Sequence record: PP925834.1
Source: Escherichia phage MiataMamis
Reading direction: 5' to 3' (one strand)
Length of the DNA stretch: 64,000 nucleotides
The position numbers and the translations under genes are program-made. The notes under the pieces were generated by a model. It saw nothing but the letters and a program-made list of their open reading frames with translations, made no database searches and had not been told where the DNA came from. Positions 38,151 to 45,293 of the stretch are shown here, piece by piece. The first letter of the stretch is position 1, and the number at the start of each line of letters is the position of its first letter.

Positions 38151-38190
38151 AAGTAAGTGCTCCTATGTTAGTTTTCTTTCGAATGGGTGC

Positions 38191-38219
38191 ACTATATTAT
38201 GGAGTTAGAGTAAAGTCAA
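38191..38219 (-). promoter_or_regulatory. sigma70-type promoter TTGACT-17-TATAGT (minus-strand arm of divergent pair)
   Basis: Upstream of gene 37251..38150 in the 38151-38292 divergent intergenic region. Confidence 0.55.
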
Positions 38220-38232
38220 CACGTTTTTGATG

Positions 38233-38261
38233 TTGACATCTGTTGAGACAATTGATACGAT
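38233..38261 (+). promoter_or_regulatory. sigma70-type promoter TTGACA-17-TACGAT (plus-strand arm of divergent pair)
   Basis: -35 at 38233-38238, -10 at 38256-38261; about 30 nt upstream of ATG 38293; start of the plus-strand island. Confidence 0.55.
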
Positions 38262-38292
38262 TTCTTCACTTACAGAGCACGAGAGACAACTC

Positions 38293-39270
38293 ATGAATCT
38301 TGAAAAATATTATACACCAGAAGAGTTAGAGCGCTTGCTCAAAAAATATAGACGCAAACAGAATAATGCACGGAAACGAGATATAGAGTTCGACCTGTCA
38401 TGGGAAGAATACCTCCTATTTGGTAAAAAACTTTTAGGAGATGGAGTATGCGACTATACCCTTATACCTTTTGACATGCACACAGATGAAAACGGGCTGG
38501 GAAATCCTTTCTACCCATCTCTGGAGCGGATAGATGATGAAGGTCCTTATGCGGTTGATAACTGTTGTGTGGTGGGATTGAGATGCAACTCTCTAAAGGA
38601 CTGTCTGGTAGATAAAAAGACTGCGGTCTCGATTAAAGACGAAACTGATCGAAAAATTGTCCAGCAGATGATGCTCCACCTGAGCGAAGAGCGTATGGAG
38701 AAATTGAAAGGTGATTATACTTTTGAAGATTTCATCTTGCAATATGGAACGGAAGAGGATAAACTAGCACTCTTTGACGAAGAAGAGGAGGAAGATATGC
38801 TACCGATGTCTAAAGTTACTTATCGTGCACCCAAGAAGCACATTTCCGACATTGTAAACGAGCCTATCACAGAAGAGATTGAAGAAATGACGCAACAGGT
38901 GCATGAAGAGGAAAAAGAGACTCAGTGGGTCGAAGAGGAGCTTACAGAAGAGGTTCCTGCACTACCTGATGATGTTGAGATTGCCAAAGCTTACACTTTC
39001 TATTGTCAAGCGTTCTACGATGTAGGTATGAAAGTTGATCTGTCGTTCAGCCAATTTAAGAGTTCGTATATTCGCAAATGCTGTGCTTTAACTGGTGAAC
39101 GTCTTGGAGCTGGACTTAAACCCCTGTTGGTGACCGACTGGAATAAAGGTTTCACTAAAGGAAACTTTATGGTAGTATCTCCAATTATGGAGAAAGCTAT
39201 GACAGATCTCATGAAGACCACCCGCATGACAATGACCGAGTTGGCAGGTATTTTCAAACACGTTAAATAA
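38293..39270 (+). CDS. two-domain protein (325 aa): N-terminal degenerate HNH-like region, acidic linker, C-terminal domain starting MSKVTYRA (ORF-track ORF 38227..39270)
   Basis: ATG at 38293 lies downstream of a TTGACA-17-TACGAT promoter that overlaps the ORF-track TTG start; N-terminal SLERIDDEGPYAVDNCCVVGLRCNSLK is HNH-like; internal copy of the 29-bp repeat at 38801-38829. Confidence 0.6.
   Translation: MNLEKYYTPEELERLLKKYRRKQNNARKRDIEFDLSWEEYLLFGKKLLGDGVCDYTLIPFDMHTDENGLGNPFYPSLERIDDEGPYAVDNCCVVGLRCNSLKDCLVDKKTAVSIKDETDRKIVQQMMLHLSEERMEKLKGDYTFEDFILQYGTEEDKLALFDEEEEEDMLPMSKVTYRAPKKHISDIVNEPITEEIEEMTQQVHEEEKETQWVEEELTEEVPALPDDVEIAKAYTFYCQAFYDVGMKVDLSFSQFKSSYIRKCCALTGERLGAGLKPLLVTDWNKGFTKGNFMVVSPIMEKAMTDLMKTTRMTMTELAGIFKHVK
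38801..38829. repeat. 29-bp perfect inverted repeat, right copy (internal to gene 38293..39270)
   Basis: TACCGATGTCTAAAGTTACTTATCGTGCA encoding LPMSKVTYRA in frame. Confidence 0.75.
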
Positions 39271-39274
39271 TGAC

Positions 39275-39291
39275 AGGGGCCAATGGCCCCT
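39275..39291 (+). other. perfect 17-bp palindrome AGGGGCCAATGGCCCCT between two plus-strand genes
   Basis: Overlaps the ORF-track start 39283; possible RNA hairpin or attenuator upstream of ATG 39304. Confidence 0.4.
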
Positions 39292-39303
39292 TCTGGAGTT
39301 TTA

Positions 39304-44057: not shown

Positions 44058-44087
44058 AGTATTGCTTTCTAGATGGAGACTGGTTAA

Positions 44088-44471
44088 ATGATGTGCAAGT
44101 GTAAATCCTATAATTGGAAAGTGAAAGGTGCCAAGCATCCAAATGTTATCGTTGATGTGCCTAAAAAACTTCGAGACGGCAAAAAACGTGTGTGCCTTGA
44201 TAAGTGCATGGCTAAGCCTATCATGAGTCTATGGGCGGCAGGACTGAAAACTCTAAACTGCTGCTGCGGTCATAACAAAGATGTTCCAAGCATCATTATC
44301 CCAGAGGATGCAGACCCTAAAGCTTATGCCAAAATACTGACCCGCTACCCCAGCACCTTCCTGATCGGAAAATGGTGTCACGATGAACTTCAATGGTGGG
44401 TAGCATACGGTAGTATAGGTACTGCTTTTGGATTTCCAGCTCTGTCAGAGCGCTACGTCAAAGTGTCATAA
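44088..44471 (+). CDS. Cys-rich hypothetical protein (127 aa)
   Basis: ORF-track ORF; multiple Cys (CKCK, CLDKC, CCCGH). Confidence 0.6.
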   Translation: MMCKCKSYNWKVKGAKHPNVIVDVPKKLRDGKKRVCLDKCMAKPIMSLWAAGLKTLNCCCGHNKDVPSIIIPEDADPKAYAKILTRYPSTFLIGKWCHDELQWWVAYGSIGTAFGFPALSERYVKVS

Positions 44472-44635
44472 TCGATTTTAAGGCCTCAAAAGAGGCCTGT
44501 GCCTTCATAAATTGCCCTACCCTATGTGATTACCCTCCTGAACAAAATACCTCTCCAAAATAGTTTAAAATTAAGCTTGACCCTAACATCAGATCTATGT
44601 ATGATTATCTCACCAACCAAACAGAGGAGATCGTC

Positions 44636-45043
44636 ATGGACAATCTTGCAGATGTAAATGTCGAAATTGTTAAACTAAAGTTCTTGGGCTTTCGAGACCC
44701 TTATTCTTTAACAGCTATACTAATGGACACTCACTTCACACCAGGTAAAGAGTACACTGCCTTCCGTTATGTTTGCGGAGATCACGAATCAGCTTATAGT
44801 GTGAATACAAACCTCGGTGAGGGATATTTCATCAGAGATATCACAGATCACTTGTGGGGCATGTGGGAGTTGGTGGAGGAAGAGAATAAATCCCTTCCTA
44901 AAGAGATTTGGGTGCACACCTTTCACACAGGCAAGTTTGGAGGTACGGAACATAAGTCTATCCACTATGATGAAGAAAGTGCCATAAAACAGCAAGCTGT
45001 GCTTGGTGGATCTGTAGAAAAATTTGTTAAATGCGAGGACTGA
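44636..45043 (+). CDS. hypothetical protein (135 aa; ORF-track ORF 44597..45043 trimmed)
   Basis: ATG at 44636 with SD GAGGAGA. Confidence 0.55.
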   Translation: MDNLADVNVEIVKLKFLGFRDPYSLTAILMDTHFTPGKEYTAFRYVCGDHESAYSVNTNLGEGYFIRDITDHLWGMWELVEEENKSLPKEIWVHTFHTGKFGGTEHKSIHYDEESAIKQQAVLGGSVEKFVKCED

Positions 45044-45046
45044 GAA

Positions 45047-45247
45047 ATGGCTGATTTTTGCAAAGATTGTTCTGAAGAGTTGTTTGGTCGTGACTGCGGA
45101 GATCTGAAAGGACTGATCACAGAAGACCAGTGGAAGGAAGGTTACGCGGCACCTGTTATCTGCGAAGGTTGCGGCTATATCTACGTTGACCACAAAGGTA
45201 AACGCGTCCAGCCGTCTGAAGATGGGTCGTGTTGGGAATATTATTAA
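45047..45247 (+). CDS. small zinc-ribbon-like protein (66 aa)
   Basis: CKDC...C...CEGC pattern; followed by bidirectional terminator. Confidence 0.55.
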   Translation: MADFCKDCSEELFGRDCGDLKGLITEDQWKEGYAAPVICEGCGYIYVDHKGKRVQPSEDGSCWEYY

Positions 45248-45252
45248 TTATA

Positions 45253-45283
45253 AAAAGAAAGGGGCCGTTTGGCCCCTTTTTAT
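45253..45283. terminator. bidirectional intrinsic terminator between convergent gene blocks
   Basis: Hairpin GGGGCC-GTTT-GGCCCC flanked by an A-run on one side and T-run on the other; between plus-strand stop 45247 and minus-strand stop 45294. Confidence 0.7.
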
Positions 45284-45293
45284 TTACCCTCCG

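Follow-up and report, generated by a model that had tools for sequence, protein, structure and literature searches.

A conserved divergent transcription unit in the rV5-like coliphage MiataMamis and its likely part in host interaction

Escherichia phage MiataMamis is an rV5-like coliphage of the genus Vequintavirus, and the window analysed here is a stretch of 64,000 nucleotides of its DNA (PP925834.1). Within this window 15 genes, which we name g1–g15, lie on the plus strand and span positions 38293-45247. The block that they form is a native, conserved operon, and not a foreign or freely variable island. It is the rV5-like transcription unit ‘genes 11-26’, one of four proposed for the rV5 genome (Kropinski et al., 2013; PMC3606486), and its bidirectional promoters and terminators were described at that time. 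We consider it likely that the block is the rightward arm of a conserved divergent promoter node, forming a native and probably early operon of host-interaction genes that the phage can do without in the laboratory.

The anatomy of the block has been known since 2013, and its dispensability and a link to counter-defence since 2025. What is new here is the observation that the VWA gene (g2) and g7 trend with a neighbouring ATPase gene, annotated MoxR, in a published transposon-insertion screen. To this we add an apparently invariable linkage of VWA and g7 across genera, with a contiguous MoxR-VWA-g7 order in Certrevirus, an allelic and copy-number-variable family of putative small beta-barrels (g3/g4), a moron-like end to the block (g14-g15) and several annotation corrections. 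The block itself is a textbook feature of a well-sequenced genus, and its value is that of a pointer: that VWA and g7 share the direction of effect of MoxR leads to a concrete, testable three-gene hypothesis.

A native and conserved transcription unit

Outside 38.2-45.2 kb, every long open reading frame (ORF) in the ORF listing of the window is on the minus strand, whilst the GC skew is +0.06 to +0.15 within the block versus about -0.1 elsewhere in the window. The closest annotated relative has all of its genes on a single strand over the part matching window positions 1-38000. ORF strands and GC skew together confirm the initial annotation in its description of a plus-strand block in an otherwise minus-strand window, and the two boundaries that it proposed, back-to-back divergent sigma70-type promoters at the opening and a bidirectional terminator at the close, are upheld as well. 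The opening is an intergenic region of 142 bp, in which the paired promoters of the divergent node occupy 38191-38261 on both strands. The leftward promoter (38219-38191, minus strand) reads TTGACT-17-TATAGT and the rightward promoter (38233-38261, plus strand) reads TTGACA-17-TACGAT with the TG of an extended -10 element. The latter is letter-for-letter the promoter P011 listed in Table S4 of the rV5 paper (PMC3606486). At the same intergenic position, phages Av-05, PVP-SE1, Seu621 and Hena1 each have a rightward promoter with TTGACA and a good -10 box, with 10-11 of 12 hexamer matches. Promoter-like matches are not enriched over the whole region (25 against 17 ± 4 expected in shuffled sequence), and the boundary promoter is credible because of its position and cross-genus conservation, not because of hit counts. 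The equivalent of the rV5 promoter ‘P020’, at 43034-43066, has a 21-nt spacer and was rejected as a credible sigma70 promoter. At its far end the block closes at an intrinsic terminator (45251-45286), a GC-rich hairpin with a U-tract on each strand, whose folding energy is -19.6 kcal/mol for the plus strand (z -4.4) and -18.7 kcal/mol for the minus strand (z -3.1). This terminator is common to the block and the convergent tail-fibre operon, and is annotated in rV5, Murica and Gotham.

Within the genus the block is close to constant. The region 38000-45400 matches 121 phage records, the best of them at 96.4%, and 112 of the 121 cover at least 80% of the region at 90-99% identity. Most of the genes are 96-100% identical between phages of the genus; the initial annotation had suggested a synteny check for variability, and this picks out only the g3/g4 and g14 slots. 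Sixteen entries labelled ‘Campylobacter phage’ with C. jejuni as host (MG0656xx, for example MG065635 and MG065677) carry the block at ~95-99% identity; their host label looks doubtful.

For comparison beyond the genus we took one phage from each of five further genera of Vequintavirinae (Av-05, PVP-SE1, Seu621, Hena1 and F5M2A), covering the neighbourhood of the g2 homologue to 12 kb on each side, and compared all genes by local tblastn. Four of these genera, represented by Av-05, PVP-SE1, Seu621 and Hena1, have the same divergent layout, with SleB and an AAA+ protein annotated ‘MoxR’ on the leftward arm and, on the rightward arm, a g1 homologue first (37-39% identity) and a g2 homologue next (43-48%). 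A backbone of g1, g2, g7 and g11 recurs beyond the genus and, like the promoter, has one layout in four or five genera of Vequintavirinae, with g11 matched in three genera and both g2 and g7 kept in Certrevirus; the other 11 of the 15 genes have no tblastn match in these loci. From these comparisons the divergent node, its promoter and the g1/g2/g7/g11 backbone appear to be ancestral to the subfamily. The composition of the block is also that of its surroundings. Its GC content is 43.5%, versus 43.9% for the rest of the window, and its coding-strand trinucleotide L1 distance of 0.108 lies in the range of other 7-kb segments (0.088-0.21). Scans of the block found no flanking repeats, tRNAs or Rfam RNA families, and no integrase. 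Genomic islands are recognised by an unusual composition, by repeats at their flanks or genes for mobility, and by a patchy presence among close relatives, and none of this holds for the block.

Dispensability and a proposed MoxR-VWA-g7 association

Functional evidence is available from transposon-insertion sequencing of phage Bas54 (MaxBurger), in which the block corresponds to bas54_0042-0056 (HIDEN-SEQ preprint, 10.1101/2025.11.20.689424). For 12 of the 15 genes the Bas54 orthologues are 89-100% identical in protein sequence; the two phages differ in that Bas54 has a single gene in the g3/g4 slot and a two-gene allele, bas54_0044 plus 0043, in place of g14. On E. coli K-12, all 15 Bas54 block genes tolerated insertions, with TA-site saturation of 0.79-1.0; 14 of them were called non-essential and bas54_0043 was called as reduced fitness, and in the same table structural genes had insertions at 0-12% of their TA sites (10.1101/2025.11.20.689424). 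This tolerance bears out the view that the block is accessory. Conservation within the genus is high, yet the phenotypes are non-essential. No protein of the block is confidently homologous to proteins of the virion or of replication, and gp11-26 do not appear among the virion proteins listed for rV5. Neither of the outcomes that the initial annotation named as refuting its reading was thus observed.

The same study reported that knockouts of bas54_0063 (MoxR) and bas54_0140 were sensitive to DS-28, a two-gene DefenseFinder system of the clinical isolate CFE311 (10.1101/2025.11.20.689424). When K-12 is compared with CFE311, the MoxR gene bas54_0063, which lies outside the block, has a log2 fold change of -7.23 (q = 0). 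Within the block, depletion is seen for bas54_0055, the VWA gene g2 (-2.20, q = 0.009), and for bas54_0051, which is g7 (-2.28, p = 0.028, q = 0.195). Between these two lie bas54_0054 and 0053, with non-significant values of +0.46 and +0.33; that they are undepleted speaks against a simple polar effect as the source of the VWA and g7 signals. The value for bas54_0056 (g1) is -0.08, also not significant. The preprint names MoxR and bas54_0140 as the anti-DS-28 genes, and VWA and g7 are outside its discussion. In Extended Data Table 8, the stored sheet ‘resampling_K-12_vs_CFE303’ carries the command line of the CFE311 file and numbers identical to those for CFE311, so that for Bas54 one strain comparison is available and not two. 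No description of the DS-28 mechanism was found in the literature searched.

The protein encoded by g2 (39304-40764, plus strand) is a DUF2201-family metallopeptidase with a VWA-like domain, and confirms the HExxH/vWA protein of the initial annotation. It matches DUF2201_N (PF13203) with E = 4.3e-28 (99.1 bits, cutoff 23.2), with the motif HEVGH in its translation, and the DUF2201 VWA-like domain (PF09967) with E = 3.8e-11 (43.6 bits, cutoff 26.4), and has all the marks of the family: an HExxH N-terminal domain, a C-terminal VWA domain and genomic association with an AAA+ gene. The start codon is likely to be at 39304, which is preceded by a GGAG ribosome-binding site, and not at 39283. The label ‘HNH endonuclease’ given to g2 in RefSeq is an annotation error. 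Relatives of g2 are encoded in 649 phage records, N4 gp25-like proteins and those of jumbo phages among them. Its putative partner, the AAA+ ATPase encoded on the leftward arm (34468-35652, minus strand), matches generic AAA Pfam models, and its sequence matches in the PDB span only the Walker A region of ClpB/ClpC; the name ‘MoxR’ is a depositor annotation only. In the Certrevirus F5M2A and in GAP32 the AAA+ gene lies directly upstream of the VWA gene on the same strand, and in the N4-like phage G7C the two are separated only by a homing endonuclease.

The third member of the set, g7 (41821-42270, plus strand; 149 residues, rV5 gp17), is a conserved gene that follows the VWA gene immediately in other Vequintavirinae genera, in three of which it is found by tblastn. 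A g7 profile from which the sequences of Hena1 and F5M2A were left out recovers their positional orthologues among 1,204 ORFs, with E = 2.3e-9 and 0.0025, and a structure search with g7 independently recovers the PVP-SE1 and Hena1 orthologues. Among the matches listed by a second homologue search, made with the cross-genus profile, most were near-identical copies. The predicted structure of g7 has a beta-sheet domain and three helices, for which no known fold relative was found; both predicted structures of this analysis were built on shallow alignments of 5-6 sequences. The ‘tail protein’ label attached to g7 (PHROG 6790, RefSeq) is without support. In the Pantoea phage F5M2A (Certrevirus), MoxR, VWA and the g7-like gene are direct neighbours on a single strand (fetched locus 10684-13931).

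The Srd-like first gene and rival explanations

The first gene of the block, g1 (38293-39270, plus strand; rV5 gp11), has been labelled ‘anti-sigma factor’ or ‘HNH endonuclease’. Its product consists of an N-terminal Srd/EndoVII-like module, an acidic linker (23 Glu per 105 residues) and a C-terminal module. It matches PHROG 3118 with E = 7e-112, phrog_4592 (‘decoy of host sigma70’, that is Srd) with E = 8.9e-13 over residues 13-131, and phrog_1400 (‘Srd anti-sigma factor’) with E = 7.5e-10 over residues 13-218; rV5 gp11 was previously reported as a Srd homologue by PSI-BLAST (PMC3606486). These profile matches group g1 in one family with the T4 host-takeover factor Srd. The N-terminal half also matches PHROG families labelled endonuclease VII-like, but no Pfam or NCBIfam family is found at E ≤ 0.1, and this includes the Pfam HNH models. 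The matches to nucleases are confined to PHROG endonuclease-labelled families, and g1 does not qualify as a curated HNH or beta-beta-alpha-Me nuclease. What the initial annotation described as an HNH-like fusion protein is better called Srd-like, with endonuclease VII-like matches at its N-terminus. An arrangement of two Srd-like modules was an impression gained from reading the sequence; BLAST of the N-terminal against the C-terminal module gave no significant sign of internal duplication (E = 2.6).

The label ‘anti-sigma factor’ descends from an old postulate of Srd as a sigma decoy. The demonstrated activity of T4 Srd, in the account of Qi et al. (2015) given in PMC7430671, is the binding and stimulation of RNase E, leading to faster decay of host mRNA, and by analogy g1 may act in the same way. 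Within the genus g1 is unusually divergent, at 88-99% identity; among records at 80% identity or more, 66 fall at 80-90%, 24 at 90-95% and 27 at 95% or above. By comparison, g2 is at least 98% identical everywhere. No homologue of g1 was among the tblastn matches in the Certrevirus F5M2A locus. A hairpin between g1 and g2 (39275-39291, plus strand; 7-bp GC stem, -14 kcal/mol, z -2.6) includes the upstream in-frame ATG at 39283 and is annotated as a terminator in Murica; it is possibly an attenuator or processing site after g1.

On the explanation that we favour, host polymerase would start at the conserved TTGACA/extended -10 promoter (38233-38261), and the block would probably be early because this promoter is of the type used by unmodified host sigma70. 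The first product would be g1, a relative of the T4 protein that stimulates RNase E and so has host mRNA destroyed. The second, g2, a predicted zinc-metallopeptidase-VWA protein, would join with MoxR, encoded on the other arm, and probably also with g7 in a remodelling or proteolytic module, and it is this module that would neutralise host defence, in the form of DS-28 in strain CFE311. The remaining small genes would be lineage-specific accessory factors, amongst them the beta-barrel g3/g4 family and the promoter-bearing g14-g15 moron, and transcription would end at the bidirectional terminator common to the tail-fibre operon. A bolder form of this scheme makes MoxR, g2 and g7 a three-component counter-defence machine that recognises, remodels and cleaves a component of DS-28, with the small, Vequintavirus-specific SH3/Tudor-like proteins of the g3/g4 slot as exchangeable adaptors or decoys that retarget or protect the machine. 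We regard this form as unlikely, but if true it would provide the first mechanistic role for the phage MoxR-VWA pair, whether in N4-like, jumbo or rV5-like phages.

Several points weigh against an early host-interaction operon with a MoxR-VWA-g7 module. The depletion of VWA is modest beside that of MoxR, that of g7 fails correction for multiple testing at q = 0.195, and both are strain-level signals on CFE311, a strain that differs from K-12 in many ways. The first gene has no phenotype on either K-12 or CFE311 (log2 fold change -0.08), and its similarity to Srd is confined to the N-terminal half. The AAA+ ATPase scores below the cutoff for the bpMoxR model (E = 0.01, 15.4 bits, cutoff 27). 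With regard to timing, no Vequintavirinae transcriptome was found in the literature searched, so that ‘early’ rests on promoter type, and the rV5 authors found sigma70-like promoters throughout the genome, which weakens promoter type as a marker of timing (PMC3606486). Lastly, 11 of the 15 genes are without any functional evidence. Nevertheless, the suggestion of the initial annotation that the block serves host takeover or counter-defence has largely stood, given the depletion of VWA on CFE311, the action of MoxR against DS-28 and the place of g1 in the Srd family.

Three other explanations deserve consideration. The block runs opposite to all its surroundings, 11 of its genes lack a detectable homologue in the fetched loci of other genera, two slots (g3/g4 and g14) show allelic replacement, and g15 and part of g14 are common to unrelated phage families, all of which would suit a horizontally acquired cassette, freely gained and lost between the replication and tail modules. 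This was also the sense of ‘island’ in the initial annotation, and it is the part of that description that has to be given up: GC and trinucleotide composition are native, there are no flanking repeats, integrase or tRNA, 112 of 121 relatives carry the block, and the node, promoter and backbone genes are found in other genera in a pattern that points to ancestry within the subfamily. The resemblance to a moron is limited to the g14-g15 end, and for the block as a whole we consider acquisition of this kind very unlikely. We see an equally slim chance that the block is a transcription-switch operon, in which g1 is an anti-sigma decoy for RpoD/RpoS that brings about the early-to-late switch and the other genes are middle-phase regulatory cargo. 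This was suggested in the rV5 paper (PMC3606486), agrees with the ‘anti-sigma factor’ annotations and the ‘decoy of sigma70’ PHROG label for Srd, and draws on the position of g1 as first gene after the conserved promoter in four genera. The decoy role has only ever been postulated, however, the activity demonstrated for T4 Srd being RNase E stimulation, and a switch to late expression should be essential, whereas in bas54_0056 55 of 55 TA sites were hit on K-12 (10.1101/2025.11.20.689424) and the gene shows no depletion on CFE311. Nor was g1 found in the Certrevirus locus.

Dispensability also counts against the last of the three, a virion-assembly chaperone module in which MoxR, g2 and g7 would act in the folding or processing of structural proteins. 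For this domain pair in jumbo phages, a function as chaperone and co-chaperone, with processing by proteolysis, is predicted by Iyer and colleagues, and such a role has been shown for the tail in Acidianus two-tailed virus; furthermore, the block adjoins the tail-fibre genes, and PHROG 6790 and RefSeq call g7 a ‘tail protein’. A module of this type fits poorly with genes that can be interrupted on K-12, and its chances seem to us slimmer still. The conserved, probably early host-interaction operon remains the explanation that we prefer.

Other genes and comparison with known systems

Between g2 and g7 lie four small genes that the initial annotation took to be tandem paralogues. This is clear for g3 and g4 (40780-41306, plus strand), each of 87 residues, which share 38% identity (phmmer E about 1e-8). 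For g5 (87 residues) and g6 (77 residues), at 41306-41804 on the plus strand, the relationship is more distant or merely suggestive: a profile of g3, g4 and rV5 gp014 finds g5 among the 466 ORFs of the window with E = 1.9e-4, and the next best match is g6 with E = 0.78. The g3/g4 slot is polymorphic. It holds two genes in 43 of 117 records and, in the other 74, one gene that is ~40% identical to either, whilst g5 and g6, which flank the variable slot, are 99-100% identical throughout the genus (slot coordinates compared: window 40780-41306; fetched loci L010 3082-3339 and L009 7849-8115). Structure prediction suggests that the slot encodes a fast-diverging, copy-number-variable family of small beta-barrel proteins of SH3/Tudor-like type. 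It amounts to a clean natural allelic replacement between near-identical genomes, a pattern that often marks host-interaction factors.

Downstream of g7, the genes g8 (81 residues), g9 (188 residues) and g10 (91 residues; together 42267-43414, plus strand) are genus-specific: they belong to small PHROG families only, have no match in the fetched loci of other genera, are 97-100% conserved within the genus and are non-essential in Bas54. The next gene, g11 (43411-43881, plus strand), encodes a small HAD-like, phosphatase-type protein that is conserved in PVP-SE1, Seu621 and Hena1 and has 559 relatives among 1.84 billion representatives. All four HAD motifs (DxDxT, T, K and DD) are present: when 52 relatives are aligned, D37, D39 and K97 show no variation, and at least 90% of the sequences keep T41, T67, D113 and D114. 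Pfam and NCBIfam give no HAD match for g11 itself, one of the 52 relatives weakly matches Hydrolase_3 (E = 0.004), and a profile search of the PDB returned nothing meaningful. The ‘HAD phosphatase’ of the initial annotation is supported to the extent of these (near-)invariant motifs, but not by any significant curated HAD profile. Two further genus-specific genes, g12 (56 residues) and g13 (127 residues), follow at 43887-44471 on the plus strand. The product of g13 is Cys-rich and that of g15 is of zinc-ribbon type, both as first described. NCBIfam and PADLOC scans of the block proteins yielded no families, and nothing useful came from searching all PDB chains with the sequences of g1, g2, g11 and g13.

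The end of the block (44482-45247, plus strand) resembles a moron. A hairpin predicted by folding (44481-44498) precedes a putative g14 promoter (44577-44605, TTGACC-17-TATGAT), after which come g14 (44636-45043, with a probable start at 44636) and g15 (45047-45247), which encodes a 66-residue protein with a CxxC...CxxC pattern. The g14 gene is mosaic as well as allelic: its slot has at least three allelic states within the genus, and the C-terminal ~45 residues of its product recur in unrelated siphoviruses. For g15, matches come from 835 phage records, most of them for Felix O1-like and T5-like phages. A 134-codon ORF (44789-45193, minus strand) lies antisense to g14 and g15; it is annotated in no relative and is probably no gene.

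Two observations concern the surroundings of the block. The first gene of the leftward arm (37251-38150, minus strand) is widely annotated as a ‘putative alpha-1,3-fucosyltransferase’, a label that goes back to the rV5 record, where a weak similarity to bovine FUT9 is mentioned; for its product neither Pfam nor NCBIfam gives a match, and tblastn finds none in the fetched loci of other genera. Elsewhere in the window the DNA polymerase ORF (21653-24430) is continuous, with 59 nt between it and the primase/helicase ORF (region 21653-26567), and in WalterGehring (fetched locus 12797-19284) one homing endonuclease lies between polymerase and primase/helicase and another within the polymerase gene.

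Among the closest known systems is rV5 itself. Its unit is the same gene for gene, with gp11 (Srd-like), gp12/13 (VWA), gp17, gp21 and gp26 all matched. The differences are that rV5 has one divergent gene, gp014 (~40% identical), where the window holds g3 and g4, that g1 is only 88% identical to its rV5 counterpart, and that the VWA gene, a single ORF in the window, is entered as two, gp012 and gp013, in the record of rV5. With T4 Srd, g1 has in common a profile-level similarity over residues ~13-218, and both genes are dispensable; early expression, the third likeness, is assumed for g1. The acidic linker and C-terminal module are extra to g1.

The g14-g15 end shares with phage morons an upstream hairpin, a sigma70-like promoter of its own and a downstream terminator, together with a patchy distribution across unrelated phages and allelic variation within the genus. 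Morons were defined in temperate phages, in which they are expressed from the prophage, whereas MiataMamis is virulent, and the expression of g14-g15 is a prediction.

A further comparison is with the MoxR/VWA pairs of other phages, such as N4 gp24-gp25 and GAP32_210-211, in which the two proteins are likewise paired and the VWA partner has the same Pfam domains. Their genes are adjacent, whereas Vequintavirus, Avunavirus, Seunavirus, Mydovirus and Henunavirus carry the two on opposite arms of a divergent promoter, 2.5-4.5 kb apart. Another difference is the third conserved gene, g7, after VWA; no g7-like gene is detectable beside the pair in GAP32 or G7C. The MoxR-VWA pair is present in hundreds of virulent phages and had no demonstrated function until the 2025 screen linked the ATPase to the evasion of a single defence system.

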